A stretch of 64,000 bases of DNA from Fibrobacteria bacterium (GCA_050486505.1 JBJHDK010000001.1:12674-76673), one strand, 5' to 3'. Shown: positions 5,202 through 51,657, counted from the first letter of the stretch. Translations and numbers: made by a program. Notes: generated by a model from the letters alone, not told the origin.

Positions 5202-6191
5202 ATGACCCAAGGTCCCGTGACCGTGGGGGCGGGTGCCGCCCTGATGGACTTGCTGTTGGAAGAGAAGGATGAATATCTCGGGCGCCTGGGCGCAGAAAAG
5301 GGGGGAATGACCCTCGTTGAAGCACCCGCGATCCAGAACGCCCTCAAAAATGCGACAGGCAGCATCAAGTCGGCCCCCGGCGGATCGGCCTCGAATACGT
5401 TGGTTGGCCTCGGTAATCTCGGTGCCCGCGCCCGCATGATCGGACGCGTCGGGAAGGACGAACTCGGGCAACAGTTTCGCGCGGGCCTGCGCAATGCCGG
5501 TGTCGAGGAGCGGCTGCGCGAGGCGGATGACGCATCCACCGGGCACGTTCTCTCCGTCGTGACGCCCGATGCCCAGCGCACCATGTTCACCTATTTGGGG
5601 GCTTCTTCGGGCCTGGGGCCGCAAGATCTCGATGACTCGGATTTCTCGGACGCCAACATGCTCCACCTCGAGGGGTACCTGTTGTTCAATCGTCCCTTGG
5701 TCGATCGTTTGCTGGAACTCGCGCGCAAGCATCACGCCAAGATCGCTCTCGATCTCGGATCCTTTCAGGTCGTGCAGGCCATGCGTGAATATCTCGACGA
5801 GCTGTTCGCGAAGGGCCACATCGACGTGTTGCTGGCCAACGAGGACGAGGCGCGTGCGTACACGGGGCTTGGCGAGTCGGAGTCGCTCGCGCAATTCGCC
5901 GACAAGGTCGAAACCGCTGTCGTCAAGCGCGGAAAGCACGGCGCCCTGATCGCCCGTGATGGCCATAACCTCGACATCCTTGCCCACCCCGTGAAGGCGG
6001 TCGATACCACCGGCGCGGGCGACCTGTGGGCTTCGGGCTTCCTGTACGGCCTCAATCATGGCCTCTCGCTCGAGAGTTCCGCCAGCCTCGGGGCGAAAAT
6101 CGGTTCCGAGGTGGTGCAGGTTCTTGGCGCCGTCATTCCTCCCGAAGGCTGGGGCAGGGTGAGGGAGTACAGGGAGAAGATGGGGAAGTGA
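5202..6191 (+). CDS. PfkB-family carbohydrate/adenosine kinase
   Basis: ATG at 5202 follows AAGGAG (5191-5196). Motifs GGSASNT and DTTGAGDLWASGF (PfkB signature 2). The longer ORF-track start at 5109 has no RBS. Confidence 0.8.
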   Translation: MTQGPVTVGAGAALMDLLLEEKDEYLGRLGAEKGGMTLVEAPAIQNALKNATGSIKSAPGGSASNTLVGLGNLGARARMIGRVGKDELGQQFRAGLRNAGVEERLREADDASTGHVLSVVTPDAQRTMFTYLGASSGLGPQDLDDSDFSDANMLHLEGYLLFNRPLVDRLLELARKHHAKIALDLGSFQVVQAMREYLDELFAKGHIDVLLANEDEARAYTGLGESESLAQFADKVETAVVKRGKHGALIARDGHNLDILAHPVKAVDTTGAGDLWASGFLYGLNHGLSLESSASLGAKIGSEVVQVLGAVIPPEGWGRVREYREKMGK

Positions 6192-6285
6192 GCAGTGAAC
6201 AGTGAGCAGTGAGCAGTGAGCAGTACGGCAATAGGAAAGAGTGAGGTTACGTCGGAGCGTTCCGCTCTATTGTTGTACTGCTGCC
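6188..6285. repeat. Heptad-array hairpin element (GTGAGCA type) between convergent genes
   Basis: Five tandem heptads gtgagca/gtgaaca at 6188-6222, then gtacggcaatag. The right arm ctattgttgtactgctgcc (6267-6285) is an imperfect reverse complement. The stop of the kinase gene lies in the first heptad. Confidence 0.7.
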
Positions 6286-11992: not shown

Positions 11993-14401
11993 ATGCATTT
12001 CACGCTTGATTTTTCCGAAATCGGAATGGATCGCCTCCCCGAAGTCGGGGGCAAAAACGCTTCCCTTGGGGAAATGTTCAATCGACTGCGCGACGACGGC
12101 ATCGCGGTGCCCGACGGCTTCGCGGTGACTGCGGCGGCGTATCGGCTCTTCCTGCAGGAGAACGGGGTCGTCCCCCGCCTCGAATCCCTTCTGGCCACTC
12201 TCGACCTCGCGGAGTTCTCGAACCTCGAGGCGGTGGCGCGCGAGGCGCGCGAGCTCGTCACCGGCGGCGAAATGCCCGCGGCCATCGTCGCGGCGGTGAA
12301 GGAGGCGCATGCCTCGCTCATGGGGCGCTGCCCTCCCGGAACCACCCTGGCCGTGCGGAGCAGCGCCACCGCCGAGGACCTGCCCGGCGCGAGCTTCGCC
12401 GGCCAGATGGAGACCTTTCTCAACATCGCCGGCGACGACGCGCTGCTTGCCGCTTGCCACAGGTGCTTCGCGTCCCTCTTCACGGCCCGGGCGATCAAGT
12501 ACCGGGTCGACAACGGGTTCGATCACATGCAGGTGGCGGTGTCCGTCTGCGTGCAGCGGATGGTACGCAGCGACCTTGCCTCTTCCGGTGTCGGGTTCAC
12601 CATCGACCCCGACACGGGAAACTCCAATGTCGTGTTACTGACCGGGGCGTTCGGACTCGGCGAAAACGTGGTGCAGGGCGCGGTCGGCCCCGACCAGTTC
12701 ACCGTGTTCAAGCACGGGCTGCGCGAGGGGCTCGACCCCGTCATCGCGCGCCAGGTCGGGCCGAAGGAAAAGACGATGGTCTATGCGGCCGCCGATGCGC
12801 CGGGCGGGGAAACCACGCTGAACGTCGATACACCCGCCGAAAAGCGGAAGGCCCTTACGCTATCCGATGCGGAGGTCCTGCAACTGGCCCGGTGGTGCGT
12901 CCGCATCGAGGAACACTACGGGCAGCCGATGGACATCGAGTGGGCGAAGGACGGGCAGACCGGGGAGCTTTTCATCGTGCAGGCGCGCCCCGAAACCGTG
13001 CATGCGGGTCCGCGCGCGGGGGCCTCGCGCAAGTCCTACGCCATCGGGGAGCGCGGCGAGGTCCTGGCCCGGGGCACGGCCGTCGGCAACGCCATCGCCT
13101 CCGGGCGCGCGCGGCGCATCGATTCGCCCGCCGATTCGGGGCGGCTGCAACACGGTGAGGTGCTGGTCACCGGCATCACCAATCCCGACTGGGACCCGAT
13201 CATGAAAAAGGCCGCGGCCATCGTCACCGACAAGGGCGGTCGCACCAGCCATGCCGCCATCGTGGCGCGCGAGCTCGGCCTCACCGCCCTGGTCGGCACG
13301 GGCACCGGTACCTCGTCCATTCCCGATGGCGCCGAGGTCACGGTTTCGTGCGCCGAGGGCGACACGGGGTACGTGTATGCGGGCAAGGTTCCTTTCACCG
13401 TCACGGAGCACGGCCCCGGAGACTGGCCCCGGCCTCGGACCCCGGCCATGCTCATCCTCGGGGAACCCGATGCGGCGTTCCGCATGGCCGCGCTTCCCTG
13501 CGACGGCGTCGGGTTGATGCGCCTCGAGTTCGTCATCAACAATGCGATTCGCGTCCACCCCGTGGCCCTGGCGAAGTGGGATGAAGTGAAGGAAGGCCCG
13601 GCCAAGGAGGAAATCCGGACCCTGACGGAGGGATGGGACGACAAGCCCGCGTACTTCGTGGACAAACTCGCCGAGGCGGTGGGAACCATCGCGGCGGCCT
13701 TCTGGCCGCGCGAGGTGATCGTCCGCATGAGCGACTTCAAGTCGAACGAGTACGCGGGCCTGCTGGGCGGCTCCCAGTTCGAGCCGGACGAAGAAAACCC
13801 CATGCTCGGCTTTCGCGGCGCCTCGCGCTACTACCACCCCCTCTATCGCGACGGCTTCCGCCTCGAGTGCCTGGCCATGCGCAAGGTGCGCGATGTCATG
13901 GGGCTGACCAACGTGAAGCTGATGATCCCCTTCTGCCGCACGGTCGAGGAGGCGGAAAAGGTGGAGGCCGAAATGGTCGCCAACGGGCTGCGTCGGGGCG
14001 AGAACGGCCTCGAGCTTTACGTGATGGTCGAGATCCCCAGCAACGTCCTGTTGCTGGAGGAGTTCGCGAAGCACTTCGACGGGTTCTCCATCGGCTCCAA
14101 CGACCTTACCCAGCTCACGCTCGGGCTCGATCGCGACTCCGAGCTTGTCAGTCCTTTGTTCAGCGAGAAAAATCCCGCCGTGCAGGAGTTGATCGCGCGC
14201 GCAGTGGGTTCCGCGCGCAAGGCCGGGCGGCGCATCGGGCTGTGCGGGCAAGCGCCCAGCGATCATCCCGATTTCGCGCAATTCCTGGTCGCGCAGGGCA
14301 TCAGCAGCATTTCGTTCACACCCGACGCGCTGCACCAGGGCATGAAGAACATGGCGCAGGCGGAAGCCGTGTTCCGGAAACACGAAGGGAGCGAAGCATG
14401 A
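11993..14401 (+). CDS. ppsA: Phosphoenolpyruvate synthase
   Basis: The start MHFTLDFSEIGMDRLPEVGGKNASLGEM matches the PpsA N-terminus. Phosphohistidine swivel GGRTSHAAIVAREL and a C-terminal PEP-utilising TIM barrel. The ORF-track start at 11834 was trimmed. Confidence 0.9.
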   Translation: MHFTLDFSEIGMDRLPEVGGKNASLGEMFNRLRDDGIAVPDGFAVTAAAYRLFLQENGVVPRLESLLATLDLAEFSNLEAVAREARELVTGGEMPAAIVAAVKEAHASLMGRCPPGTTLAVRSSATAEDLPGASFAGQMETFLNIAGDDALLAACHRCFASLFTARAIKYRVDNGFDHMQVAVSVCVQRMVRSDLASSGVGFTIDPDTGNSNVVLLTGAFGLGENVVQGAVGPDQFTVFKHGLREGLDPVIARQVGPKEKTMVYAAADAPGGETTLNVDTPAEKRKALTLSDAEVLQLARWCVRIEEHYGQPMDIEWAKDGQTGELFIVQARPETVHAGPRAGASRKSYAIGERGEVLARGTAVGNAIASGRARRIDSPADSGRLQHGEVLVTGITNPDWDPIMKKAAAIVTDKGGRTSHAAIVARELGLTALVGTGTGTSSIPDGAEVTVSCAEGDTGYVYAGKVPFTVTEHGPGDWPRPRTPAMLILGEPDAAFRMAALPCDGVGLMRLEFVINNAIRVHPVALAKWDEVKEGPAKEEIRTLTEGWDDKPAYFVDKLAEAVGTIAAAFWPREVIVRMSDFKSNEYAGLLGGSQFEPDEENPMLGFRGASRYYHPLYRDGFRLECLAMRKVRDVMGLTNVKLMIPFCRTVEEAEKVEAEMVANGLRRGENGLELYVMVEIPSNVLLLEEFAKHFDGFSIGSNDLTQLTLGLDRDSELVSPLFSEKNPAVQELIARAVGSARKAGRRIGLCGQAPSDHPDFAQFLVAQGISSISFTPDALHQGMKNMAQAEAVFRKHEGSEA

Positions 14402-22027: not shown

Positions 22028-23364
22028 TGCGCATGCCGATATCCGCATCTTCGCCTGCGACCGTGCTTGTGGTCGACGATGAGGCGCATGTCCGTGAGGT
22101 CACCGCCATGGCCCTGAAGCACTCGGGACACAGTGTCGTTTCCGCTGCGGGCGCGGAGCAGGCAATGGAGATCCTGCGTGAGGAAAACATTGATGTGATC
22201 ATCAGTGATGTGCGCATGCCGGGCCTCGACGGCATCGAGTTCCTTCGACGCGTGCGCGAAGAACAACCTGGGATCCGCTTCGTCGTCATGACGGCGCACG
22301 GAACCCTCGATGTCGCCGTGCGCGCGCTGCGGCACGGCGCGGATGATTTCCTCACGAAGCCGTTCGATCACGATGCCCTGCGCGACATCGTGCGGCGATT
22401 GTTGCGGGAAGTCCCCCGGCGACCCGCCCCCGTTCGCCCCGGCGGAGCCCCTGCCGAAGCTCCGCTGGGGGAGAGCCCCCCATTCGTCTCCTGCCTCGAC
22501 ATCGTGCGCAAGGCAGCCCGCACCGACGCCACCGTGCTCATCACCGGCGAAACCGGCTCGGGCAAAGAGGTGATCGCCCGGCACCTGCACGCCCTGTCGC
22601 CTCGCGCCGCCGGGCCTTTCATTGCGGTCAACTGCGGCGCCATTCCCGAGAACCTGATCGAGGCCGAGCTCTTCGGTTACGTGCGGGGGGCCTTCTCCGG
22701 CGCCATTTCGGATCGGCCGGGCAAGCTCGCCCTCGCCGACGGCGGCACGCTCTTCCTCGACGAGGTCGGCGAAATGCCACCGGCCATGCAGGTCAAGCTC
22801 CTGCGCGTGCTGCAGGAACGCGTGCTCGAACCCGTCGGGGGGATCATGAGCATGCGCGCCGATTTTCGCCTCGTGGCCGCGACGCATCGTGACCTGCGCG
22901 CCGAGGTCGCCTCCGGGCGTTTCCGCGAGGATCTCTGGTTCCGTCTGCACGTCATCCCGGTGGCCGTGCCTCCCCTGCGCGATCGCGGCGACGATGTGCT
23001 GCTGCTTGCCCGTCGCTTCCTTGCCGGGTGGAATGCCCACTACGGGACGGTGCATGCCCTTTCACCCGGCGATGCCGAGCTTCTGCGCACGTACGCGTGG
23101 CCGGGCAACGTGCGCGAGCTGGCCAATTCAGTCGAGCGTGCGGTGGTACTGGCCGGGGATGCCGGTCTGGCGTGGGATCTCGGTGGGGGCGGGGGGCCGG
23201 ATGCGGTCGACCCTTCCGTTCGGGGATGTCGCCGCGCCGCGGAACGGGAGGCCATCGTGGCGGCGCTCGAGTCCTGTCGCTGGAACAAGACCCGCGCGGC
23301 GGAGGTGCTGGGCATCTCGCGCCGCAGCCTGCTTTACAAGGTGAAGGAGTACGGGATCAGTTAA
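22027..23364 (+). CDS. Sigma-54-dependent response regulator (NtrC family)
   Basis: ATG overlaps the kinase stop (TGATG). [18 protein letters not shown] receiver, [14 protein letters not shown] loop, [19 protein letters not shown]. Confidence 0.9.
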
Positions 23365-23507
23365 GAATTGAGAATTAAGAATTGAGAATGATGGGGGTGT
23401 CCCGATAACGGAGGTCGGTGATTTACGCGCACAACACCCGTAGACGCTTCACGCAAATACAGTCCTTGCGTTCAATTCTTAATTCTCAATTCCCAATTCG
23501 TAATTAA
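23361..23507. repeat. Heptad-armed hairpin element (GAATTAA/GAATTGA type)
   Basis: Left arm ttaagaattgagaattaagaattgagaa (23361-23388). Right arm ttcaattcttaattctcaattcccaattcgtaattaa (23471-23507) is its imperfect reverse complement. The loop is about 82 nt. Confidence 0.8.
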
Positions 23508-23518: not shown

Positions 23519-24277
23519 CTACGAAGCTTCTTGCTCGTGCAACGCCGGCACGTCGTCCTCGCGCCAGACGAGCAGGCTGCCGCAGCTTTCGCAGGTGAGC
23601 AGCTGGCGGCGCTTCGAGACCTCGATCACCCGCTGCGCCGTCTGGTTGCGGCTGCATACGTCGCAGGCGCGGTGGACGTGGTTCACCGCCGCGATGATGT
23701 TCGGTGTGCCGCGCCTCTCGCGCATGCGGTCATAAAACGACAGGGTCTTCTTGCTGATTTTCGAGCGCGGCTCCTCGCCCTTGCGGGCTTCCCCGGCGAT
23801 GCGGTCCTCGATGCCGTTGAGCTCGGTGGTGAGCGTGTCGAGTTCGGGACCGACCTCCTCGCGCACCTTCGCGAGGGAAGCTTCAGCCTCCTCGACGTCC
23901 TTGCCGAGGTTCTCGAGAACCTGCTGAAAATGCAGCACCTGGGCTTGGGCCGTATCGATGCTTTTCTTGTGCGCGGCGATCTCGAGATGCACGGCATCGT
24001 ACTCGCGGTTCGTGCTGATGTTGGTGAGCCGCTTCTCGCTTTCCTCCAGCGCAGCCGTTTCGGTGGCCACCGCTTCCTGGTTCGATCGGATCAACCCTTC
24101 GGTGCGGGTGATCTCATCGCGCAAGGCCTGCACGGCCGTCTCCTCGTCGGAGATTCGCTGCTGCAGGGCCTCGATGCGCTGGGGGAGATCCCTGCGCGTC
24201 TGCTGGAGCTCAAAGACCTTCTTGTCCACTGCGGAGAGGCTCAGAAGGTTTTGCAAATCTTCTTCGATTGTAACCAT
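23519..24277 (-). CDS. Coiled-coil protein with C-terminal C4 zinc ribbon (COG1579-like)
   Basis: Long heptad-rich N-terminal part, C-terminal CDVC..17..CESC. Confidence 0.7.
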   Translation of the reverse strand: MVTIEEDLQNLLSLSAVDKKVFELQQTRRDLPQRIEALQQRISDEETAVQALRDEITRTEGLIRSNQEAVATETAALEESEKRLTNISTNREYDAVHLEIAAHKKSIDTAQAQVLHFQQVLENLGKDVEEAEASLAKVREEVGPELDTLTTELNGIEDRIAGEARKGEEPRSKISKKTLSFYDRMRERRGTPNIIAAVNHVHRACDVCSRNQTAQRVIEVSKRRQLLTCESCGSLLVWREDDVPALHEQEAS

Positions 24278-24363
24278 TGCGATACCCGGGGGTTCGGCAC
24301 CCCGAGGCCGGCCATGGTGCTCCCTGGAGGGGGGCGGCGTGGTGTCCGGATTCAGGTTGCCAT

Positions 24364-26728: not shown

Positions 26729-26735
26729 GGCGAAG

Positions 26736-26896
26736 GAAGTTATGAATTATGAGTTATGAGTTATGAGTTGGGGGCTGGTGGTTGCAAAATCCGGATTTCA
26801 TGACTGTTACCGGTGCTGTCCTGAATCATGATATCCCAATCAGGACGCGACCCGGTTCCCCCAGACTCATAACTCATCACTCATGACTCATAACTC
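26736..26896. repeat. Heptad-armed hairpin element (AGTTATG type) between divergent ispE and argF
   Basis: Left arm gaagttatgaattatgagttatgagttatgagttggggg (26736-26774). Right arm cccccagactcataactcatcactcatgactcataactc (26858-26896). The loop is about 83 nt. Confidence 0.85.
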
Positions 26897-26914
26897 GTTT
26901 CTTAATTTTCTCCG

Positions 26915-27872: not shown

Positions 27873-28454
27873 ATGCCTCGTCCCAAGCTTCACACCGACG
27901 CAGCAGTGCTCGCAGCAGCGCTGGCGGTGCTTTTACGCAAGGGACCATCCAGCTTTACTCTATCCGACGTCGCGACCGAGATCGGCATGTCACGCGCCGC
28001 GCTCATCCAGCGCTTCGGTGACAAGGCCAGACTGCATTATCTGGTGAGGGAGAGCATGACACGCGAAGTGCACGCGTACTTCGATGGTCTCGATCCCGCG
28101 CGCTTCGGCAAGGGCCTCGCACCCCTTTGGGACATGCTCCGGGACTTGATCTCAGGCATGGGTTCGGGAGAGGATACCCCCGGCTACCTGCTTCTTAACT
28201 GGGCGGATATTCAGGATCCCGGCCTTTTGCTCCTCGCGCGCGAGAGTGATGAACGCGTTCGCCATGAAATCGAAATCCGGCTGCCCGCGAAACCGCATCC
28301 TCCGTCGGAAACCGCGTCCCTCGTTCAAGCCGTGATCCAGGGTGCGTGCATGCAGTGGTTGGTCAGCCGCGAGGGGACGTTGGTTCGTTTCATGACCGAC
28401 CAAACCCGGCGGGTCTTGCAGGCGCTTTACCCCGAACACAGCTTCAAACCATAG
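27873..28454 (+). CDS. TetR-family transcriptional regulator
   Basis: N-terminal HTH FTLSDVATEIGMSRAALIQRFGDK, about 190 aa, helical C-terminal domain. Confidence 0.8.
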   Translation: MPRPKLHTDAAVLAAALAVLLRKGPSSFTLSDVATEIGMSRAALIQRFGDKARLHYLVRESMTREVHAYFDGLDPARFGKGLAPLWDMLRDLISGMGSGEDTPGYLLLNWADIQDPGLLLLARESDERVRHEIEIRLPAKPHPPSETASLVQAVIQGACMQWLVSREGTLVRFMTDQTRRVLQALYPEHSFKP

Positions 28455-28496
28455 TCCCAAAGAACCGCGAAAAGCGCGGATTCCCCCTGACTTCAT

Positions 28497-28520
28497 ATAT
28501 AACCGACGAGAAGGTTATAT
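28497..28520. promoter_or_regulatory. 8-bp perfect inverted repeat ATATAACC-N8-GGTTATAT enclosing the RBS of the radical-SAM gene
   Basis: Read directly. The loop gacgagaa plus the right arm carry the GAGAAGG Shine-Dalgarno, and the ATG follows at 28522. This could be a TetR operator or an RBS-sequestering hairpin. Confidence 0.35.
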
Positions 28521-28521
28521 T

Positions 28522-29616
28522 ATGGCCATGGAATGGGTCGTCTCCAGACAGAACGAAACAACTTCGCCGGTTAACGTCGAGAGAGGGCATGGGGGGCACA
28601 CTCCAAGGCCTCTCCTGCCAGGGTTCGTGCCGGAAGAATTCGATGCCTTGCCGCAAGGTGTGCCAATCGTTGATTACTCCGACCTTTTCGGGACGGCGGA
28701 AGGGACTCCCTGGCTGAGACAGTGGGCCTCGGAGCGAGGGGTGGATCTCAGGGGATTGAGACCAATCAAGGTCGAGCGAGGGCCGCGCACCTGCAAGCAT
28801 TTGTTCGCGCTGCGCGACGGGTACGCGGTCGAAAGCGTGTTGATCCGCCGTCGCGACGGGGAGACCGCCTGCATCTCATCCCAGGCGGGCTGCGGGTTCG
28901 GCTGCCGGTTTTGCGCTTCGGGTCGGGCAGGCCTCAAGAGAAACCTGCTGTCGGGGGAGATCGTCGAGCAGGTCGTGCGCTTGGGGCGCGGAGTCAACCG
29001 GATCGTGTTCATGGGAATCGGCGAACCTCTCGCCAATTACACGCAAGTCATTCGCGCCATCCACGTGCTTCGGGATCGCCGGGGCATGAATTTCCCGACG
29101 ACGGGAATCACGATCTCGACGATCGGCATTCCGTCCGCGCTCAAAAGATTGCGGGAGGAGCATCTCGGGATCAACCTGACGGTTTCATTGCATGCAACGA
29201 CCCAGCAGGTCCGTGACTGGCTGATTCCCGGGGCTCGCGGTCACGCGCTCAGCGAGGTCGTTGCGCGCGCGTTGTCGTGGGGCGAGAGGCACGGACGCAC
29301 CGTGACCTTCGCATACCTGCTTCTCCCCGGGATCAACGACTCGCCGCAAGATTCCGCGAGATTGGCGGGCATGCTTCGCGGTCGACCCGCCAGGGTGAAC
29401 CTGATGCGCTGGAATTCCGTGGAAGGCGCAGGATTCGCGCGGATCGGAGACTCGGGATTACGACGGTTCAGGGGACAACTGGAACGCGCTTCGGTCCCCG
29501 CGACGGTGCGTGACACACAGGGACTCGACGCATCGTCGGCGTGCGGCCAACTGTGGCTGCGCGACGCACGGGGAAGACCTTTTCCCGCACGCCGCGACCC
29601 CGCCCGGGACCGATAG
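28522..29616 (+). CDS. Radical SAM rRNA/tRNA adenine-C methyltransferase of the RlmN/Cfr family
   Basis: CISSQAGCGFGCRFCASG (CxxxCxxC cluster), GIGEPLANY, ISTIG, SLHA, C-terminal SSACGQLW. The N-terminal ~90 aa do not look like the canonical RlmN head. Confidence 0.75.
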   Translation: MAMEWVVSRQNETTSPVNVERGHGGHTPRPLLPGFVPEEFDALPQGVPIVDYSDLFGTAEGTPWLRQWASERGVDLRGLRPIKVERGPRTCKHLFALRDGYAVESVLIRRRDGETACISSQAGCGFGCRFCASGRAGLKRNLLSGEIVEQVVRLGRGVNRIVFMGIGEPLANYTQVIRAIHVLRDRRGMNFPTTGITISTIGIPSALKRLREEHLGINLTVSLHATTQQVRDWLIPGARGHALSEVVARALSWGERHGRTVTFAYLLLPGINDSPQDSARLAGMLRGRPARVNLMRWNSVEGAGFARIGDSGLRRFRGQLERASVPATVRDTQGLDASSACGQLWLRDARGRPFPARRDPARDR

Positions 29617-30502: not shown

Positions 30503-31333
30503 TTAAAACTCTACGCGTTCCGCAACGACGGGCCGCCCCAGAAATCCGGATGCCAAACGGGTGAAGCCTTCCGTCCTGTCGGTCGTGAAAAAGCGTTCCG
30601 TCCCCCCGCGGGTGAGAGTCGAGGCGATTTCAGGATGGCGGGCCAGATAGTTTTCGAGGGAGGGGGCCACGATGTCGGCCTGCACCAGGATCCGGGTGCT
30701 CTCCGGGACCACGCGCCTGATGGCGGGGTAAAGCAGGGGGTAATGGGTACATGCCAATAACAGGGCATCGACGGGAGCGGATCCCCCCGCTTGCTCCTGC
30801 GTCATCGCCCAGTACTTGCGGACGAAGTGGTCGAGGCCGGGGCCGTCAAGCTCGCCCGCTTCGACGAGAGGAACCAGCAGGGGGCAGGCGACCTGCGTCA
30901 GGCGGATGTCGGGCGCGAGCTTGGCGAGCTCGAGCGCGTAGCTGTTGGAGCGCACCGTACCCTGCGTGGCCCACAGGGCGACATGCGCGTCGGGGGCCTG
31001 GTGCGGCGATTCCGCCAGCGCTTCCGCCGAGGGACGGATGATGCCGAGCACGCGCCGGTCGGGCCAGCGTGCGGGCAACACCCGCTGCTGGATGGTGCGC
31101 AGGGCTTCCGCGGAGGCCGTGTTGCAGGCCATGACGACCAGCTTGCAGCCTTGTGAAAACAAATGCTCGACGCCTTCGGTGGCGAAGCGCAGCACGGTCT
31201 CGAAAGAGCGGTTTCCGTAGGGGGTTCGGGCCGTGTCGCCCAGATAGAGCGCGTCGTAGTGCGGCATGCGCTCGCGCACCTTGCGGTACACCGTCAGCCC
31301 GCCGAGTCCGGAGTCGAAAAAGCCGAGAAGCAT
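30503..31333 (-). CDS. murI: Glutamate racemase
   Basis: MLLGFFDSGLGGL start, ACNTAS and CTHYPL catalytic Cys motifs. The ORF-track N-terminal extension runs into the heptad array and was rejected. Confidence 0.9.
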   Translation of the reverse strand: MLLGFFDSGLGGLTVYRKVRERMPHYDALYLGDTARTPYGNRSFETVLRFATEGVEHLFSQGCKLVVMACNTASAEALRTIQQRVLPARWPDRRVLGIIRPSAEALAESPHQAPDAHVALWATQGTVRSNSYALELAKLAPDIRLTQVACPLLVPLVEAGELDGPGLDHFVRKYWAMTQEQAGGSAPVDALLLACTHYPLLYPAIRRVVPESTRILVQADIVAPSLENYLARHPEIASTLTRGGTERFFTTDRTEGFTRLASGFLGRPVVAERVEF

Positions 31334-31351
31334 GGGAGAGAGGTAGTAACG

Positions 31352-31582
31352 CAATAGTGGACAGTGAACAGTGAACAGTGAACAGTGTACAGTGTACAGT
31401 GGGCAATAGAACAATGCAACAATGCAACAATGGGCAATGAAGCGGGTGTGTCGGGAGTCTGTGGACGGGTGGGTCTGTTGTCAGGACTGGTGTTCCGCCT
31501 CCACATTGTCCACTGTCCACTGTACACTGTTCACTTTCCTCCCCCGTCCCCCATTGTCCACTGTCTACTGTCCACTGTCCAT
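31352..31582. repeat. Heptad-armed element (CAGTGAA/CAGTGTA then CAATGCA type) with one long left arm and two right arms
   Basis: Left array 31352-31439. Right arms are cattgtccactgtccactgtacactgttcac (31504-31534) and cccattgtccactgtctactgtccactgtccat (31549-31582). Both are complementary to the left array. Confidence 0.8.
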
Positions 31583-31655
31583 TTTTCCTCCCTCCCTTGC
31601 CCCATCCCGAAGGATTAGTTATCCTTGATGCCCAATTTTTACGAGGGAGCGCGCA

Positions 31656-32033: not shown

Positions 32034-32058
32034 TCCGGAAGCGTTCCGGTTCACAAAG

Positions 32059-32084
32059 GCCGCCCCAGACGGGCGGCTTTTTTT
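32059..32084 (+). terminator. Rho-independent terminator after rpsT
   Basis: GCCGCCC-cagac-GGGCGGC followed by a T-run of seven. Confidence 0.7.
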
Positions 32085-33303: not shown

Positions 33304-33340
33304 GAGTTATGAGTTATGAGTCGTGAGTGATGAGGTGAGC
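33304..33340. repeat. Solo heptad array (GAGTTAT decaying to GAGTGAT/GAGGTGA)
   Basis: gagttat gagttat gagtcgt gagtgat gaggtga, starting 4 nt after the argD stop. No complementary arm was found downstream. Confidence 0.7.
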
Positions 33341-33439
33341 GCAGGAATGGTGCCTGCATGAATTGTTCGTGCACCAATCAATCGAATGTCACAGATCTCC
33401 GTGATCGACGCGCCGGATATGGCGGTGATGTAGTCAGGG

Positions 33440-33737
33440 CGAGGCATGCCTCGCCTTTACACGTCCGCGTGGATCCTGACGGTGTCGAGCGGGCGACTCA
33501 GCCCCCGCCTTTCCCGTGCCTGCACAGCGCGCGGGGGCAGGCCCCCGCCTTTCCCGTGTCGGCATAGCGCGGGGGCAGGCGAGTCGCCCCTACACGTCTG
33601 CGGAGTCCTGACGGTGTCTGGCGGGCGACTCAGCCCCCGCCTTTCCCGTGTCGGCATAGCGCGGGGGCAGGCCCCCGCCTTTCCCGTGTCGGCATAGCGC
33701 GGGGGCAGGCGAGTCGCCCCTACACGTCTGCGGAGTC
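33440..33737. repeat. Composite tandem repeat, period ~130 bp, about 2.3 copies, containing four GCCCCCGC-N20-GCGGGGGC hairpin modules
   Basis: Copy 2 (33579-33708) and the partial copy 3 (33709-33737) are identical where they overlap. Copy 1 (33440-33578) is diverged. Each unit is gcgagtcgcccctacacgtctgcggagtcctgacggtgtc..gggcgactc plus two back-to-back 39-nt hairpins. Confidence 0.85.
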
Positions 33738-36996: not shown

Positions 36997-37049
36997 AGGG
37001 TGACTTCGTCGTCGCTTGTTCGCCCGCGGCGGCCCCACGCGCCTCAGTG

Positions 37050-37091
37050 CCCGATTCCCGATTCCCGATTCATAATTCCCAATTCATAACT
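37050..37091. repeat. Solo heptad array (CCCGATT x3, then CATAATT/CCCAATT/CATAACT)
   Basis: Read directly. It ends 8 nt before the ATG of the PASTA gene, and its orientation corresponds to the right-arm sense of the GAATTAA family. Confidence 0.65.
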
Positions 37092-37098
37092 TTCCCCC

Positions 37099-37455: not shown

Positions 37456-39224
37456 TGCGCCCCGGCGCGCGTGCGCTGCTCGTCGCGGCCCTTGCCTTCG
37501 GTGGCGCCGCGCACCCCGCGTCAGGGGAGGAAACAGGGCGCGGCGCGGCCCGCGCGCTGTTCCTGGAAGCCCGGCAGCTGGAGCGGGCCGGCGACCATGC
37601 CGCCGCCCTGGAGCGCTACCGCGCGGCCTTCCATGAAGACCCCGTCAGTCGCGATCTCTGCTTCGTGCTCACCGAGCGGTTGAAGGATGCCGGAGACCTC
37701 GAGGAGGCGCTGGAAACGGGCGCGGCCTGCCTCGGCCTGCCGGGGGACACCCTGTACACCGACCATCGCCTGCTGGGCGAAATCGCCCTGCGTGCCGATG
37801 ACCTCGCGGTTGCGCTGCACCACTACCGTGCGGCCTACGCCCTCAACCCGGGTGACGGCGACGTGCTCTTCATGCTCGCGGGCCTGCTCGAAGAAACCGG
37901 GGAGCAGGATTCCATCTATCTCGAGGTCCTCGAGGCGCTGCTGCCCAGGCTGAACTATTCCCCGCGGCTGATGGATCGCGCCCTGCGAGCCTACGCCCTC
38001 GCGGGGCGGGTGGGCGAGCTGGTTCCCTTGCTGCAAGCGGCCTGGGAGCAGGAGCGCCACCCGCACCACGGTCGCGTGCTCGCGGCCTGGTACGACGCCG
38101 AGGGTCTTCCGCTGTCGGTTCTGGGCGTCGCCCGCGAGCTGGCGGCGATCGATCCGTCGCCCGAGCACGACTGGTTGCTCGCGCGAGCTTATCACGCCTG
38201 CGACCGCCCCGACTCCGCGCTGGTGTTGTTCGAACGGTTGGCGAAGGCGCACCCGGACAACTCCGAAATCGTGCATTCGCTGGCGCGGGTCCTCTTCGAG
38301 CGCGGGCGCTACCGCGAGGCGCGCACGGCGGTGCTCCCCCTGTTGCGACGCGACGACTTCGATCGCGCCCGCGTGGCGTTCCTCGCGGGGGCCATCGACA
38401 TCGAACTCGGGCGGCGCGGAGGAGAAGACCTGATCCGCGAGGCGGCGGAACTCGAGCCCGATGTGCCGGGCTACAGGAGCTGGCTTGCGTATGCCGAATA
38501 CGTCAGGGGCGGGCGCGGTGCGCGCGCGCGCGCCGAGGAGCACCTCGCGCCCGGTTCGGGCGCCGGTCTCGACGAAGAGGGAGCCCTGTGGTTCGAGGCG
38601 ATGGCGCGGGGCATGCTGGCGCGGGACCTCGTTCCCGCCGAGCCGTGGGAGCGCCCGCGGCGCTTCACCGATGCCGCCGAAGCCCGCCGCCACCGTCGCG
38701 TCGCCGTCGAGCGCCTCGAAGCGCTCCTCGACCGCGTGGAGGATCCGCGTACCGTGTTGTTCGAGTTGGGCGCGCATCTCGAGCGGCTCGGTGAGCGCGA
38801 ACGCTCGCTCGCCGTGCTGCGCCGTCTCGTGGAACTCGATCCTGACCACACCCTCGGCCTGAATTACCTCGGTTATACCCTCATCGAGCCCGACGCCCCC
38901 CCGGCCGAGGATCTCGCCGAAGCCGGGCCGCTCATCCGCCGCGCGCTCGAACTCGACCCCGAGAGCGGGGCCTATCGCGATTCCTGGGGCTGGTGGCACT
39001 ATCGCAACGGCAACCTTGATTCGGCGCGGGTATGGCTCGAGCGCGCCCTCGAAAGCATGCCGCACGATGCCGAAGTGCTCGCCCACCTGGCAGAAGTCGC
39101 CCTGGCGCAGGGCGACATCACCGCCGCTTGCGGTGCGTGGCACGCCTTGCGGAGCATCGATCCGCGCAGGGATCCGATGCCGGAGTGCCCCGAAGCACCG
39201 GCGCAACGCGGGCGGCGGCGGTGA
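37452..39224 (+). CDS. Secreted TPR-repeat protein
   Basis: Signal peptide MMRPGARALLVAALAFGGAAHPASG and many Ala/Leu/Arg-rich 34-aa-type repeats (AALERYRAAFHEDP, LHHYRAAYALNPGD). ATGA overlap with the upstream gene. Confidence 0.7.
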   Translation: MMRPGARALLVAALAFGGAAHPASGEETGRGAARALFLEARQLERAGDHAAALERYRAAFHEDPVSRDLCFVLTERLKDAGDLEEALETGAACLGLPGDTLYTDHRLLGEIALRADDLAVALHHYRAAYALNPGDGDVLFMLAGLLEETGEQDSIYLEVLEALLPRLNYSPRLMDRALRAYALAGRVGELVPLLQAAWEQERHPHHGRVLAAWYDAEGLPLSVLGVARELAAIDPSPEHDWLLARAYHACDRPDSALVLFERLAKAHPDNSEIVHSLARVLFERGRYREARTAVLPLLRRDDFDRARVAFLAGAIDIELGRRGGEDLIREAAELEPDVPGYRSWLAYAEYVRGGRGARARAEEHLAPGSGAGLDEEGALWFEAMARGMLARDLVPAEPWERPRRFTDAAEARRHRRVAVERLEALLDRVEDPRTVLFELGAHLERLGERERSLAVLRRLVELDPDHTLGLNYLGYTLIEPDAPPAEDLAEAGPLIRRALELDPESGAYRDSWGWWHYRNGNLDSARVWLERALESMPHDAEVLAHLAEVALAQGDITAACGAWHALRSIDPRRDPMPECPEAPAQRGRRR

Positions 39225-39232
39225 AGCCCGCC

Positions 39233-39961
39233 ATGTCGCCACGCGGCCGGACCGGTGCGCTTCTCGTCCCGTGCATGATGGCCTTGTTCGCCGCCTGCGC
39301 TCCGCCCCTGCAAGACCCCTGGGGGCGCGACCTCGGGCGCGGAACTGACCCGGGGGATCCCCCCGCACTCCCCGAACGCATCGAAGCCGACCTCGAACTC
39401 ATTCCCCGCGAGCGCGGCTCCGCCCCCTTCAACGCGCGGCTCTACGCCGAGCCGGGTCGGCGCTATCGCATCGACTTCATCGCCTTCACGGGATCGATCA
39501 TCGCGAGCTGGGGATGGGAGGGGGGGGACTGGATCCTCGTCAGGCACGACACGCGCACGGTGCGGCGCGGCAGGGGAGACGCGCTCGAGCTCGATGGCGT
39601 GCGGGCGCGGCTGCCCGACGTGCACGCGGTTCTGGGGTTTCTGTGGGGCCGCCCGCTGCCCGGGGTTCCGGGCGCGGACCCGCCGCACCTCGAAGGCGGC
39701 CTCCTGCACTGGACGCATGGGGGCGAGCCTTGGGACGCGCGCATCGACGCGTCCACCGGGCTGGTGCGGCGGGTGCGCTCGCCGGGGCTCGCGTTGCGCT
39801 ACGCGCGCCACCGCGCCCGCGGTCCGCTGGTGATCGCGGAGGAAGCCGAACTCTTTCTCGACGGCGAATCGGCCCTGCTGCTGCGGGTCGATGCCTGGAC
39901 CGCCGCTCCCGCGTGGGGGAGGGATCCGTTCGGGGTGAGGGTGCCGGGGAGTTATGAGTGA
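39233..39961 (+). CDS. Lipoprotein, LolB/DUF4292-like
   Basis: Lipobox LFAAC. The body (FNARLYAEPGRRYRIDFIAFTGSIIASWGWEGGDWILV) resembles LolB/DUF4292 half-barrels that often follow TPR genes. An alternative GTG start at 39221 overlaps the TPR stop. Confidence 0.5.
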   Translation: MSPRGRTGALLVPCMMALFAACAPPLQDPWGRDLGRGTDPGDPPALPERIEADLELIPRERGSAPFNARLYAEPGRRYRIDFIAFTGSIIASWGWEGGDWILVRHDTRTVRRGRGDALELDGVRARLPDVHAVLGFLWGRPLPGVPGADPPHLEGGLLHWTHGGEPWDARIDASTGLVRRVRSPGLALRYARHRARGPLVIAEEAELFLDGESALLLRVDAWTAAPAWGRDPFGVRVPGSYE

Positions 39962-39997
39962 GGAGTGGAGAGTTACGAGTTACGAGTGAGGAGTGCT
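39949..39997. repeat. Solo heptad array, seven GAGTNNN units
   Basis: gagttat gagtgag gagtgga gagttac gagttac gagtgag gagtgct. It encodes the last codons and the stop of the lipoprotein gene. Confidence 0.7.
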
Positions 39998-46991: not shown

Positions 46992-48965
46992 ATGTGCGGT
47001 ATCGCCGGCTTTCTGGGTTCCCCTGAACCGCACTCCGGAGCTTTTCACCACAGCGTGACCCGCATGGCCAACGCCCTGCGGCACCGCGGTCCCGACGCCG
47101 ATGGCGTCTGGACCGATGCCGGTAACGGGGTGGGGCTGGGCCACCGCCGCCTCTCCATCGTCGAACTGTCTCCCGAAGGTTCCCAGCCCATGGTCTCAGC
47201 CGACGAGCGCCACGTACTCGTCTTTAACGGCGAGATCTACAACCATGACATCATCCGCAAAGAACTGCAAGATGGGGGTACGACCTTCCGCGGGCACTCC
47301 GACACCCGGGTACTCGTGGAGGCCATCGCCCGCTGGGGGGTGGAGGGCGCGCTCTCCCGTTGCACCGGTATGTTCGCCTTCGCCGTGTGGGACCGTTACG
47401 AGCGGGTGCTGGCCCTGGCCCGTGACCGCATGGGAGAGAAACCCCTGTACTACGGATGGTTGGGAGATACGTTTCTTTTCGGCTCCGAACTCAAGGCATT
47501 GCGGGCTCACCCCGTGTGGAAAGAGCGAGGGGGTGGCGTCGATCGCAACGCGCTCGCGGCATATCTGCGCCACAACTACATCCCCGCACCGCTGAGCATT
47601 TACAACGACATTCGCAAACTGGAACCGGGCGCGCTGCTGAGTGTGCGGGCCGATCGCCCCGGCGTCGTGGAACAAAAAGAATACTGGAGCCTCGCTGCCG
47701 TCGCGCTGGAGGGCGTAGCGAACCCCTTTCGCGGCGACGCGGGTGAAGCCGCCGACGCGTTCGGCCGGCTCCTGGAGGCCTCCATCGCTCGCCAGATGGT
47801 GGCCGATGTCCCCCTGGGCGCCTTTCTCTCGGGCGGGGTCGATTCCTCCGCGGTGGCGGCGCTCATGGTCAAGGCGCAGGCACAAGGTTCGCGCTCCGTG
47901 CGCACCTTCACCATCGGGTTTCATGAGAAGAGCGTGAACGAGTCGGAGTTCGCCAGGACTGTGGCCTCGCATCTCGGCACGGACCACACGGAAATGTTCG
48001 TGAGCGGCGCCGATGCGCTTGCCACGGTTCCGCGCCTGCCGGAGATTTACGACGAACCCTTCGGCGACAGCTCCGCCATTCCCACCGTGCTGCTCTCCGC
48101 GCTCACCCGCCGCCACGTCACCGTGGCGCTCTCGGGCGACGGGGCCGACGAATTGCTGGCGGGGTATACGCGCTACGAACAGGGGGAGCGGATCCGGCGC
48201 GTGCATGCCGCCTTGCCCGCAGCTGCGCGTCAGGGCCTCGGGGGCTTGGCGACGGCGGTAGCCGCGACGCTCTCCCGCATTCCCGCAGGTTTCGAGGAAC
48301 GTCTTCCCGCGCGCCTGCGCAGCCTGAACGTGCCCACCCGTCTGCGCACCTTGCGCGACTTGCTCGCCTGCAAGACGGATGAAGCCCTGTATTCTCACCT
48401 GATTTCGCTATGGCGACACCCCAATGAGATCGCATTGGGGGTCGAGCGGGCGGCTGTGCCGGCGGGAGGGACGACCGGTCGCGAACATGCCGGGGAATTT
48501 TTGCGCTCCATGCAGCTCCACGACCAGCTCATCTATCTCCCCGATGACATCATGGTCAAGGTGGATCGCGCTTCGATGGCTGCAAGTCTCGAAACGCGCG
48601 CCCCCCTGCTTGACCACGCACTCGTCGAGTTTGCATGGACCTTGCCTCCCGCCCTGTTGCGTACCGAAGCGGGGCTTTCGAAGGGGCCCCTGCGCAACGT
48701 GCTGTACCGGCACGTGCCCCCCCGTCTCATCGAGCGCCCCAAGAAGGGATTCGGCGTTCCCTTGGCGAGCTGGCTGCGCGGTCCGCTGCGTGATTGGGCA
48801 GAAGCCTTGCTTTCGGAAAACCGGCTGCGCCACGAGGGCTTTCTCGACCCCGTGCGCGTGCGGGCGGGATGGAAAAAGTTCCTTGCCGGCGCCTGGCACG
48901 GCGAGAACTACCTCTGGAATTTGCTCATGTTTCAGGCATGGCTCGAACGCGAGAACGGGGGATGA
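46992..48965 (+). CDS. asnB: Asparagine synthase (glutamine-hydrolysing), EPS-locus type
   Basis: MCGIAGF Ntn nucleophile, PP-loop SGGVDSS, 657 aa. Confidence 0.85.
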   Translation: MCGIAGFLGSPEPHSGAFHHSVTRMANALRHRGPDADGVWTDAGNGVGLGHRRLSIVELSPEGSQPMVSADERHVLVFNGEIYNHDIIRKELQDGGTTFRGHSDTRVLVEAIARWGVEGALSRCTGMFAFAVWDRYERVLALARDRMGEKPLYYGWLGDTFLFGSELKALRAHPVWKERGGGVDRNALAAYLRHNYIPAPLSIYNDIRKLEPGALLSVRADRPGVVEQKEYWSLAAVALEGVANPFRGDAGEAADAFGRLLEASIARQMVADVPLGAFLSGGVDSSAVAALMVKAQAQGSRSVRTFTIGFHEKSVNESEFARTVASHLGTDHTEMFVSGADALATVPRLPEIYDEPFGDSSAIPTVLLSALTRRHVTVALSGDGADELLAGYTRYEQGERIRRVHAALPAAARQGLGGLATAVAATLSRIPAGFEERLPARLRSLNVPTRLRTLRDLLACKTDEALYSHLISLWRHPNEIALGVERAAVPAGGTTGREHAGEFLRSMQLHDQLIYLPDDIMVKVDRASMAASLETRAPLLDHALVEFAWTLPPALLRTEAGLSKGPLRNVLYRHVPPRLIERPKKGFGVPLASWLRGPLRDWAEALLSENRLRHEGFLDPVRVRAGWKKFLAGAWHGENYLWNLLMFQAWLERENGG

Positions 48966-50473
48966 GTTCCCGGCGCGAGTCCTTTCTCGGGGCCCTGGTC
49001 TCGTCCACCCTGTGGCGGGTGCTCGACCGCTTCACGGGCCTGCTCAAACACATCCTGATCGCGGCACTCATCGGTCTCACCGGGCAGCTCGACGCCTTTT
49101 ACATGGCGCTGGCCATTCTCGGGGTGCTGGTGTTCGCCTGGGCCGAGGTGGCCGACGTGATCGCCGTGCCGCGCATGGCGGAGTGGTCGGTGCGCGGGGA
49201 CGTGGAGCCGCTGCAGCGCGCGGCGGCGGGCCTGTTCTCCCTGAGCCTCGGCCTGGGTGCGGCCATGGCCCTGCTGTGGTGGGTGGCCGTGCCCTGGATC
49301 GCGTTGCTGGCCCCGGGGTTCTCGCCCGAGCAGCGCGTCTTGCTCGAGTCGGCCCTCGCCTGGTTCACCCCCGTGGTACTGCTGTACCCCGCCTACCGCC
49401 AGCTGGGAGGGATGCTGCGCGCCGTGCGCCGCTTCTCCCTGTTCTACAAGGGCGAACTGCTGATCTCGGTGACCGTGCTGGCCTGCATCTTCTTCTTCGG
49501 CGGCTCGCCCACCGTGCTGTTCTGGTCGTATGCCGCGGGGATCGGGGCCGGGTTCCTCTACCTGCTGGCCCATGCGGCCTTTGCCTTCCGCCTTTTGGCC
49601 GGTCCCCGGAGAGCCCTGGAAGCCGTGCGCGGCCTGCTCGGGCAGGCTCCCATGCTGATTCTTCTCAACGCGGTGACGGGGGCCACCGTGCTCATCGACC
49701 GCGTGTTCGTGTCCTTCCTTCCCGAGGGGAGCATGGGGGCCCTGGCGTATGCATTGATCGCCACCGGGCTGGCCGCCTCGCTGCTGCGCCCCGGCACCTC
49801 CTTCGTCACCGTCTTCGCCGAAGCGCAGGGCGACCCCGACCGGCAGGGACGGCTGTTCGACGACACGCTCATCCTGATGATCGTGACGGGCATTCCCGTT
49901 TCCGCGGCGCTGCTGGCCTTCGCCGACCCCCTGCTGGCGCTGGCCGCGGGATGGGGCGTGCTGCGCGCCCAGGACGTCGGCCCGTTGATCCTGGCGACTC
50001 TCGGCATGGGTGCGGGTGCGATGCCGCTGCTCTTGCTCTATGTGCTCGACCAGGTCTTTCTCGTCAAGAAGCGTCTGGGAACCCTGTTGCTGCGGACCAC
50101 GGTGGGGTTGTTGCTGAACGCCATCCTCAATGCGCTGGTGGTGTTCGTGCTGGGGTGGGGCGTATGGGGCATCGGCGCGGCCACGGCGGTGAGTTATTGG
50201 ACCATGGCCCTGCTTGCGCTGGGACGTGTGCCGGGATTGGGGGTTCGCTTCGATGCGCGCGGCGCGATCGTGCAACTAGTGAAGACCGTATTGGTCTCCG
50301 GCGCCATTGCCGTTGCGGGACGCATGCTCGTCGATGCCCTGCCGCACACGGCGTGGATCCTTCCGGTGCTGGCAGGCTATGTCGTGCTGGTTGCGACGGG
50401 CTTGATGCTTGCCGGAGGGCGAGGGGGGGAGTTGGCGAAAGCGGCGGTGGGGAGACTGGGAATTAAGAATTGA
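48962..50473 (+). CDS. MurJ/MviN-like MOP-superfamily flippase
   Basis: ATGA overlap with asnB. About 14 TM segments, N-terminal LLKHILIAALIGLTGQLDAFYMA pattern as in MurJ. The ORF-track start at 48794 lies inside asnB and was trimmed. Confidence 0.7.
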   Translation: MSSRRESFLGALVSSTLWRVLDRFTGLLKHILIAALIGLTGQLDAFYMALAILGVLVFAWAEVADVIAVPRMAEWSVRGDVEPLQRAAAGLFSLSLGLGAAMALLWWVAVPWIALLAPGFSPEQRVLLESALAWFTPVVLLYPAYRQLGGMLRAVRRFSLFYKGELLISVTVLACIFFFGGSPTVLFWSYAAGIGAGFLYLLAHAAFAFRLLAGPRRALEAVRGLLGQAPMLILLNAVTGATVLIDRVFVSFLPEGSMGALAYALIATGLAASLLRPGTSFVTVFAEAQGDPDRQGRLFDDTLILMIVTGIPVSAALLAFADPLLALAAGWGVLRAQDVGPLILATLGMGAGAMPLLLLYVLDQVFLVKKRLGTLLLRTTVGLLLNAILNALVVFVLGWGVWGIGAATAVSYWTMALLALGRVPGLGVRFDARGAIVQLVKTVLVSGAIAVAGRMLVDALPHTAWILPVLAGYVVLVATGLMLAGGRGGELAKAAVGRLGIKN

Positions 50474-50618
50474 GAATTAAGAATTAAGAATTGGGAATTG
50501 GGAGAGAGACGTGATAAAACACGAAGATCGGCGATGCGTTCACAATGTTCATGGACACTTCACTCAAGCACAACACCTGTGTTCAATTCCTAATTCTTAA
50601 TTCGTAATTCTCAACTCC
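50459..50618. repeat. Heptad-armed hairpin element (GAATTAA type)
   Basis: Left arm ggaattaagaattgagaattaagaattaagaattgggaattgggag (50459-50504). Right arm ttcaattcctaattcttaattcgtaattctcaactcc (50582-50618). The loop is about 77 nt. The flippase stop lies inside the left arm. Confidence 0.85.
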
Positions 50619-50643
50619 ACTCCACCCCACACGAGGCCCTCCC

Positions 50644-51420: not shown

Positions 51421-51643
51421 GAATTGAGAATTAAGAATTAGGAATTAAGAATTAAGAATGAGGAGTGAAATGAATGCCGGAGATATACGATATCATGTGA
51501 TGCAGTTTTCTTTCCGGATAGCAGGGGAAGCCAGAAGCGGGATGGCACAGTGATTTATCGGCAATGCGCGCGGCACTTTCACAAAAGTCCCCCTGTGTTC
51601 AACTCTTAATTCCTAATTCCTAATTCTTAATTCTTAATTAAAA
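51421..51643. repeat. Heptad-armed hairpin element (GAATTAA type)
   Basis: Left arm gaattgagaattaagaattaggaattaagaattaagaatgaggagtg (51421-51467). Right arm ttcaactcttaattcctaattcctaattcttaattcttaattaaaa (51598-51643). The loop is about 130 nt. Confidence 0.85.
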
Positions 51644-51657
51644 CCGAGAACCTCCCT

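Follow-up and report, generated by a model that had tools for sequence, protein, structure and literature searches.

Bacterial tandem repeats of heptamers have been on record since 1990, and no other class of long simple repeat is as abundant; to our knowledge, neither a function nor a generating mechanism has been established for them. The cyanobacterial STRR repeats were reportedly described by Mazel in 1990 and by Jackman and Mulligan in 1995. Here, we analyze intergenic hairpins with arms of 7-nt tandem units in a 64-kb stretch of DNA from a Fibrobacteria bacterium (GCA_050486505.1 JBJHDK010000001.1:12674-76673; hereafter the window, with positions counted from its first letter). These elements are very probably heptameric simple sequence repeats, or STRR-type hairpins. 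New in the present case are the phylum, the AT-rich units, the persistence in divergent promoter regions, and a ~80-nt core common to four elements; the heptamer class is thereby extended to another phylum and to AT-rich units in a GC-rich host. From sequence comparison we propose, at about even confidence, that the hairpins evolve in place by 7-nt slippage with complementary arms, pass an orientation filter, and act as putative REP-like stem-loops at transcript boundaries.

Intergenic GGGAATC arrays in the GC-rich genomes of Xanthomonas include, per genome, 70-75 inverted pairs termed 'convergent' (Rehm et al. 2015, PMC4692102). Either the G-rich strand is found within 50 bp past a stop codon, in many cases overlapping it, or an open reading frame (ORF) is preceded by the C-rich strand. 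This ORF-relative polarity has been reported for the GGGNATC repeats of both Xanthomonas and Nostoc; those of Xanthomonas are depleted between divergent ORFs and vary between close relatives at conserved sites (PMC4692102). The window elements share with Xanthomonas GGGAATC and Nostoc GGGGA(C/T)T repeats the dispersed 7-nt arrays, the stem-loop pairs and the polarity. One array, (CCCGATT)3 at 37050, has the very unit of Xanthomonas, GGGAATC read on the opposite strand, and is the only match to a named unit; AGTTATG, AATTAAG, and AGTGAAC are not named units. Unlike the Xanthomonas repeats, the window elements belong to another phylum, have mostly AT-rich units that form no G-quadruplex, share a unique core in some cases, and are common as hairpins in divergent gaps. 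A G-quadruplex reading, which calls for at least four G3 tracts in an array, was rejected, since AT-rich units without G3 tracts rule it out as a general explanation; the 37050 array has three consecutive C3 tracts and one more distant. The claim of the sequence-only reading that no such family was described in a high-GC bacterium thus fails on the inverted GGGAATC pairs of the same polarity in Xanthomonas: the class is catalogued, whereas these units and this phylum are not. The present unit strings were not found in the literature searched, and no generating mechanism is given there; slippage was proposed as the origin of heptamers, as far as Mrazek 2007 is represented where cited in PMC4679880 and PMC4692102.

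In filamentous cyanobacteria, hairpins of 7-bp repeats are 'not unusual' and occur, among other places, between hupS and hupL; such intergenic regions are 'highly variable but structured' among close relatives, and the suggested roles are transcript stabilisation, translational coupling or termination (PMC2670836). The window arms are likewise 7-bp tandem repeats between genes, but the STRR units CCCCAAT, TTGGTCA, and CAACAGT differ from theirs, and the STRR hosts are low-GC filamentous cyanobacteria. In Beggiatoaceae, cyanobacteria, and Bacteroidetes, TAACTGA arrays are located directly upstream of start codons lacking a Shine-Dalgarno motif (MacGregor 2015, PMC4679880). Only one case in 170 is inverted, TAACTCA is never tandem in the Beggiatoa genome, and the proposed role is purely translational (PMC4679880). 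The window unit TAACTCA (AGTTATG on the other strand) is one base off TAACTGA; like it, the window arrays are intergenic, mixed with related heptamers, placed with the pyrimidine-type ('forward') strand just before start codons, and in some cases overlap ORF ends. They are, however, often inverted pairs, whereas TAACTGA arrays are nearly all direct. No function was assigned to heptamers by Rehm 2015 (PMC4692102) or MacGregor 2015 (PMC4679880). Geobacter metallireducens has an intergenic multicopy family of five tandem heptamers (MTYCTGA), mostly in opposite-strand pairs (Aklujkar 2009, PMC2700814). Unlike the window elements, these sites are annotated as regulator-binding by prediction, with a different unit and shorter arrays. 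REP/BIME and Correia (CREE) elements are, like the window elements, dispersed intergenic palindromes found in any gene arrangement and often just past stop codons. The mRNA stem-loops of REP and Correia elements stabilise or process transcripts. They are distinguished by a fixed consensus, by RAYT transposases (REP), and by TA duplications and IHF sites (Correia), none of which were found here; the window arms, as variable tandem heptads, also do not conform to the REP/BIME definition of a 20-40-nt palindrome with fixed consensus and GTAG head.

Tandem Repeats Finder (TRF), applied to the whole window, called period-7 arrays of 3-11 copies at all ten loci named in the sequence-only reading (6187, 23361/23472, 26738/26865, 31356/31507, 33304, 37050, 39948, 50460/50585, 51420/51607, and 52730). 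The heptad pattern of that reading, ARTKNNS, occurs 38 times in three tandem copies as compared to 0.04 expected from dinucleotide shuffles, and the AATTATG unit bridging two unit types is present at 26745. The 17 arrays per 64 kb correspond to ~26 per 100 kb, about five-fold the 4-6 per 100 kb in unrelated loci. Array GC content is 20-50% in a window of ~64%. Some 15% of the window is non-coding, and every array lies inside or borders a gene gap; coding sequence is entered only by few-codon overlaps at ORF 3' ends and in the C-terminal tail of a GT4 glycosyltransferase ORF (52730). The gaps are convergent (6188, 23361), divergent (26736, 31352), and co-directional (50459, 51421), which bears out that a plain terminator role fails for the divergent sites. 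Pfam annotation identifies the neighbours as housekeeping genes (pfkB-family kinase, Sua5, sigma-54 activator, GHMP kinase, carbamoyltransferase, S20, AspRS, and a polysaccharide cluster). At the amino-acid (aa) level, the carbamoyltransferase shares 76-81% identity with proteins of uncultured freshwater Fibrobacterota metagenome-assembled genomes (MAGs), and the host is an uncultured Fibrobacterota lineage.

When the inverted repeats of the whole window (within 260 nt) are ranked by length, the top 16 belong without exception to five heptad elements, each of which pairs in several registers offset by 7 nt. These five strong pairs form 21-50-bp stems on either strand around a unique centre of 84-150 nt. 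RNA folding gives the element at 26730-26905 a long-range stem of ~43 bp with dG -77 kcal/mol and z about -8 on both strands, and the elements at 23355, 31345, 50455, and 51415 z-scores of -4.3 to -7.1 on both strands, so that all five fold significantly whichever strand is read. A sixth proposed pair, 6188-6285, had to be downgraded (~14 long-range pairs, z -2.6/-1.1; the last unit alone pairs). Among the four arrays described as solo, those at 33304, 37050, and 52729 indeed lack a hairpin upon folding, while the 39949 array has a marginal, degenerate partner (z -2.8/-1.2).

We compared these gaps with four syntenic loci of relatives (L121, L122, L123, and L127; good synteny with the window). 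Between the GHMP kinase and carbamoyltransferase genes, the arms consist of AGTTATG in the window, GTAGACG in L121, AATTAAG in L122, and GGGGACG in L127; L123 has a long non-heptad inverted repeat and more distant genomes have nothing. The racemase/rpsT gap holds AGTGAAC in the window, AATGATG/CATTCCT in L121, and AGTGGAA in L123, and is empty in L122. The convergent gap at 23361 corresponds in L121 and L127 to plain terminators, each a GC hairpin with a T-run. The L123 equivalent (125-305) is a heptad hairpin with TAGCGGG/CAGCAGT arms around an A-tract/GC-stem/T-tract terminator, which suggests that heptad arms can grow around a pre-existing terminator. All elements of the relatives fold (z -2.3 to -12). 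Arm complementarity and position thus persist while the unit sequence changes, and hairpins are retained at shared sites in genomes whose carbamoyltransferases are only 76-81% aa identical. Conserved position and complementarity with turnover of units argue for evolution in place and against repeated transposition. The same housekeeping gaps, holding different units, a plain terminator or nothing in relatives, constitute a natural experiment.

Further observations concern these syntenic loci. A ~70-nt segment upstream of rpsT (31583-31655; …CCCTTGCCC…TAGTTATCCTTTGTCCCCAAATTTTAACAGGGAGG…) is strongly conserved in the window, L121, L122, and L123, with or without a heptad element, including the empty L122 site; it is probably the rpsT promoter and leader. 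Two genes after the carbamoyltransferase gene (27873-29616) are absent from L121, L122, and L123, where the corresponding gap often has a heptad array right after the stop codon. The MAG containing L122 and a further locus, L517 (CAZKRC010000034.1, CAZKRC010000120.1), is labelled 'uncultured Bifidobacterium sp.', a label that looks wrong: its carbamoyltransferase locus is syntenic with the Fibrobacterota window, 79% aa identical, and has a GC content of 63-66%.

The individual features of the window are as follows, with R denoting a purine-rich and Y a pyrimidine-rich array or arm.

6185-6227, plus strand: R array of AGTGAGC/AGTGAAC, 5.4 copies (TRF), with a weak partner at ~6268-6285, in the convergent gap between a pfkB-family kinase gene and sua5; the TGA stop (6189-6191) falls within the first unit.
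23361-23389, plus strand: R arm of an AATTAAG-type hairpin in a convergent gap, 21 nt 100% complementary; its first unit includes the TAA (23362-23364) that ends the sigma-54 activator gene.
23390-23471, plus strand: unique core of this element, homologous to the cores at 50504, 51530, and 33413-33336 (minus strand) (nhmmer E 1e-20).
23472-23507, minus strand: Y arm, CTTAATT units on the plus strand, 12 nt from the stop of the minus-strand gene 23519-24277.
26738-26774, plus strand: R arm of AGTTATG, 4.6 copies, then GGGGG, beginning 9 nt away from the GHMP-kinase start codon (minus-strand gene).
26775-26858, no strand assigned: 84-nt unique loop of the 26736 element, unrelated to the AATTAAG-type core; judged from the divergent gene arrangement, both divergent promoters must lie within this loop plus the arms.
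26859-26896, minus strand: Y arm, on the plus strand CCCCC then ACTCATA, 4.6 copies, ending 18 nt before the ATG at 26915 of the ornithine/aspartate carbamoyltransferase gene.
31354-31405, plus strand: R arm of AGTGAAC/AGTGTAC, 6.6 copies, in the divergent racemase/rpsT gap, starting 18 nt from the likely racemase start (CAT 31333-31335).
31410-31432: period-8 perfect repeat (AACAATGC)x2.9 within the loop of the 31352 heptad element, a side observation.
31503-31535 and 31551-31583, minus strand: two Y-arm blocks, CACTGTC units on the plus strand (z -5.0/-4.3), with a C-rich spacer between them; 72 nt separate the end of the second from the rpsT start.
33304-33340, plus strand: 'solo' R array (GAGTTAT...), 4 nt past an aminotransferase stop codon; read on the minus strand, it is a Y arm following a core homologue.
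33336-33413, minus strand: fourth, weaker copy of the ~80-nt core, adjoining the 33304 array (nhmmer E 0.006).
37047-37091, minus strand: solo Y array (TRF), on the plus strand (CCCGATT)x3 then CATAATT, CCCAATT, and CATAACT, ending 8 nt before the ATG of a PASTA-domain gene.
39949-39997, plus strand: R array of AGTTATG/AGTGAGG/AGTTACG, followed by a weak degenerate Y-rich partner; it encodes the last codons and TGA stop of ORF 39032-39961 and lies 57 nt upstream of tRNA-His.
50460-50503, plus strand: R arm of AATTAAG/AATTGAG/AATTGGG; by frame analysis it encodes the final four codons and TGA (50471-50473) of ORF 48794-50473.
50504-50584, plus strand: core homologous to 23390-23471 (nhmmer E 1e-18).
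50585-50618, minus strand: Y arm (z -6.2), ending 25 nt before the ATG (50644) of a methyltransferase gene.
51417-51464, plus strand: R arm, 36 nt 94% complementary, starting right after the methyltransferase-gene TGA (51418-51420).
51530-51601, plus strand: core homologue (nhmmer E 3e-12), with ~65 nt of extra loop sequence ahead.
51601-51641, minus strand: Y arm (z -7), ending 16 nt before the GTG (51658) of the GT4 glycosyltransferase gene.
52727-52779, plus strand: solo R array within the last ~27 codons of the GT4 ORF, translated as ...VMSYESGVVSGELGV... in the C-terminal tail, past the end of the Pfam domain.

The three AATTAAG-type elements (23361, 50459, 51421) thus share their core next to the Y arm, and a profile search with nhmmer finds the fourth copy beside the 33304 array, which marks that array as the remaining arm of a once-complete element. 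The four cores are ~65-68% identical (68% mean column identity in the four-copy alignment), and the centres of the 26736 and 31352 elements are unrelated to them. Such a repeated core is in line with the likeness to MITE or Correia elements raised by the sequence-only reading. On such an explanation, the heptad arrays would be the terminal inverted repeats of non-autonomous mobile elements spread into gaps by transposition. Sizes of 100-250 nt, inverted ends, and intergenic location agree with this, as do the empty racemase/rpsT site in L122 and L517, which carries another AATTAAG-type hairpin with the same arm junction at a different locus of the genome of L122. The core of the L517 hairpin is, however, not homologous to the window core, and the core profile matches nothing in 114 kb of relatives. 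Target-site duplications were not found in the flanks of 23361, 50459, 51421, and 31352 or at the empty L122 site, a transposase gene was likewise not seen within the 64 kb of the window, and the arms vary in unit type, order, and length between copies, leaving no fixed end for a transposase to bind. Moreover, identical gaps in four related genomes are occupied by hairpins of different units, for which transposition would need repeated independent insertions. While the shared core and the empty site speak for the proposed likeness, we consider mobile elements of this kind distinctly unlikely. A search of GTDB genomes for the core/Y-arm junction returned about as many matches as calculated for chance (52 and ~35, respectively), L517 being the exception.

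Orientation of the arrays relative to genes is strongly biased. The purine-rich arm is the 5' arm in six of six window pairs, on the plus strand and hence also on the minus strand, and among all loci fetched 39 pairs are purine-first and three pyrimidine-first. Twelve of 15 window arrays have their nearer ORF on the 5' side, and stop codons at 6191, 23364, 39961, 50473, and 51420 are inside or directly abut the first heptad units. Pyrimidine-rich arrays end 8-25 nt before five start codons, which are preceded by C-rich sequence and for which no Shine-Dalgarno motif was found. Within the window, no purine-rich array is stop-free in all three frames as compared to six of 17 pyrimidine-rich strands; ATG/GTG codons number 1.49 per 21 nt on purine-rich and 0.08 on pyrimidine-rich strands, and Shine-Dalgarno-like words 0.56 and 0, respectively. 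Purine-rich strands that close frames and carry start- and Shine-Dalgarno-like words, and pyrimidine-rich strands with nearly none, provide a plausible selective orientation filter. As a separate observation, the C-rich stretches before start codons resemble an anti-Shine-Dalgarno sequence (26905-26914, 37090-37098, 50634-50643, and 51648-51657; for example TTCTCCG ATG, TTTCCCCC ATG, GCCCTCCC ATG, and CCTCCCT GTG). The carbamoyltransferase orthologues (L121-L127) keep this stretch even without heptads, and rpsT has a clear GGGAGG.

In the mechanism that we propose, the elements would arise and turn over in place by replication slippage in 7-nt steps rather than by transposition, with intrastrand (arm-to-arm) template switching or selection keeping the arms complementary. 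Selection would filter orientation, tolerating after ORFs the purine-rich strand, which closes frames quickly, and in leaders the pyrimidine-rich strand, which is nearly without ATG/GTG or Shine-Dalgarno-like words. Where both arms are transcribed, they might form a long stem-loop like REP/BIME or Correia hairpins that could serve as a transcript-boundary structure, blocking 3' exonucleases, offering a site to RNase III, pausing or terminating transcription, or acting as an insulator; transcription starting in the centre would yield only a G-poor unstructured leader. The comparative set-up makes this terminator, stabiliser, or insulator hypothesis directly testable, and the practical pay-off is modest unless a function is shown.

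Several points weigh against this mechanism. The diverged core common to four elements is not predicted by pure slippage in place, does not follow from slippage alone, and hints at some copying between loci. Two strong hairpins fill divergent promoter regions and are kept across at least four related genomes, where a role at transcript 3' ends makes no sense. The heptad elements have no short loop with a U-tract, and their loops of 84-150 nt compare with 3-8 nt in canonical terminators, which the host does use (e.g., 32055-32081 after rpsT) and which the elements do not resemble. Scans for sigma-70 promoter and terminator consensus sequences returned chance-level matches, none of which explains the elements, and no element was among the terminator hits. 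The asymmetry in frame closing and start codons is partly an automatic result of purine content. Finally, relatives close enough to display polymorphism of plus or minus 7 nt were not found, the nearest being 81% aa identical among genomes and 62% among metagenomes, and an exact-protein look-up for strain-level relatives found nothing.

Exact-heptad searches of 596 Gb of genomes place the window in a wider context. GAGTTATx2.6 arrays occur in at least 120 genomes, including Nostoc, many Bacteroidota, Chloroflexia, Acidobacteria, and others, and are often the same purine-first hairpins. GAGTTAT was nevertheless dropped as a conserved cross-phylum motif, as the composition-matched control GATATGTx2.6 is likewise found in at least 120 genomes. 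Viral contigs yielded 31 matches to the control heptad and 38 to GAGTTAT, and the control loci are also rich in period-7 arrays and purine-first pairs. The equally wide occurrence of the control indicates that the phenomenon is generic to heptad repeats and not unit-specific. In other phyla, simple ORF calls place 89 arrays with the purine-rich strand in sense after a stop codon and 16 with the pyrimidine-rich strand there, the control-heptad loci giving 49 and 12 cases, respectively; the purine-first, stop-abutting polarity thus holds across phyla and for an arbitrary control heptad. Outside Fibrobacterota, inverted pairs nearly always touch a gene 3' end (1 of 33 in divergent gaps as compared to a baseline of ~21%), unlike in the window clade, where heptad hairpins stably occupy two divergent gaps.

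It is a long shot that heptad-armed hairpins form one cross-phylum gene-boundary class of uniform design, in which the 5' arm is purine-rich and begins within the stop codon, the centre is unique, and the 3' arm is pyrimidine-rich, and which is made and renewed by a dedicated process of hairpin-templated copying. If true, the class would act as orientation-independent transcript insulators or terminators, the hairpins of the Fibrobacterota clade would have been co-opted as housing for divergent promoters, and STRR, GGGNATC, TAACTGA, and Geobacter sites would be one phenomenon. The equally common control heptad, in genomes as in viral contigs, is conversely what would be expected if the elements were neutral or selfish slippage products without function that fill spare non-coding space and are oriented only by avoidance of harm. 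The arrays do extend through gaps to the very edges of ORFs and contribute stop codons, related genomes show no constraint on the unit sequence, sites can be empty, and the accounts of Rehm 2015 and MacGregor 2015, which name no function, accord with this. Yet arm complementarity is kept despite unit change, hairpins recur at the same sites in genomes as distant as the carbamoyltransferase identities indicate, and the polarity bias stays pronounced in convergent gaps, which have no start codon to protect. On balance we regard a purely neutral origin as unlikely.

The fixed phase of A-R-T in the window units allows for another function, namely that the arrays are binding sites for a DNA- or RNA-binding protein. 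HutP, for example, reads UAG every 7 nt, and in this explanation the A-R-T trinucleotide would be recognised with the same spacing. The protein could be a global regulator or nucleoid protein, as proposed for Geobacter (PMC2700814), or an RNA binder of the S1, Csp, or CsrA type, which was suggested for TAACTGA (PMC4679880). Binding sites would suit the pyrimidine-rich arrays before five start codons lacking a Shine-Dalgarno motif. The A-R-T form fits 67% of non-seed arrays at the GAGTTAT loci of other phyla as compared to 38% expected, but this enrichment was measured in GAGTTAT-selected loci and is inflated by mixed arrays. The relatives have units without A-R-T at the same sites (GTAGACG, GGGGACG, TAGCGGG), and no candidate protein was identified. 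Binding-site arrays therefore appear highly unlikely to us, and in-place slippage remains the reading that we prefer.

The sequence-only reading had also suggested a structured RNA family, i.e., a conserved non-coding RNA such as a riboswitch-like leader or small RNA encoded by core and arms. In its favour are the significant folds, which occur on both strands, and a possible small hairpin next to the Y arm in the four cores with a few compensatory changes, as judged from the alignment by eye. Folding equally well on both strands is, however, what DNA palindromes typically show, in contrast to an RNA gene with one orientation; relatives do not preserve the cores, and two of the four modules are oriented into the 3' ends of convergent genes. 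Comparison with Rfam returned no family match to the elements, neither at the gathering threshold nor at E<=1, and the only credible matches were two tRNAs. These results leave an RNA gene extremely improbable. A match to the snoRNA sR36 at 13577-13627 is attributed to chance (E 0.82, 20.6 bits as compared to a gathering threshold of 55) and lies away from any element.

Three further features were noted in the window. ARAGORN called a 101-nt tRNA-Ala at 24214-24314, which is probably a false positive, being unsupported by Rfam at any threshold and overlapping ORF 23519-24277. A 130-nt tandem duplication of 2.2 copies at 33451-33737 contains four GC-rich palindromes of ~38-40 nt (GCCCCCGCC...GCGGGGGC) at 33490-33710; this REP-like hairpin family, distinct from the heptads, adjoins aspS on the downstream side and reaches the 3' end of that gene. 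GC content drops to 0.50-0.55 where the polysaccharide-biosynthesis region ends (58000-62600), which suggests horizontally acquired DNA.

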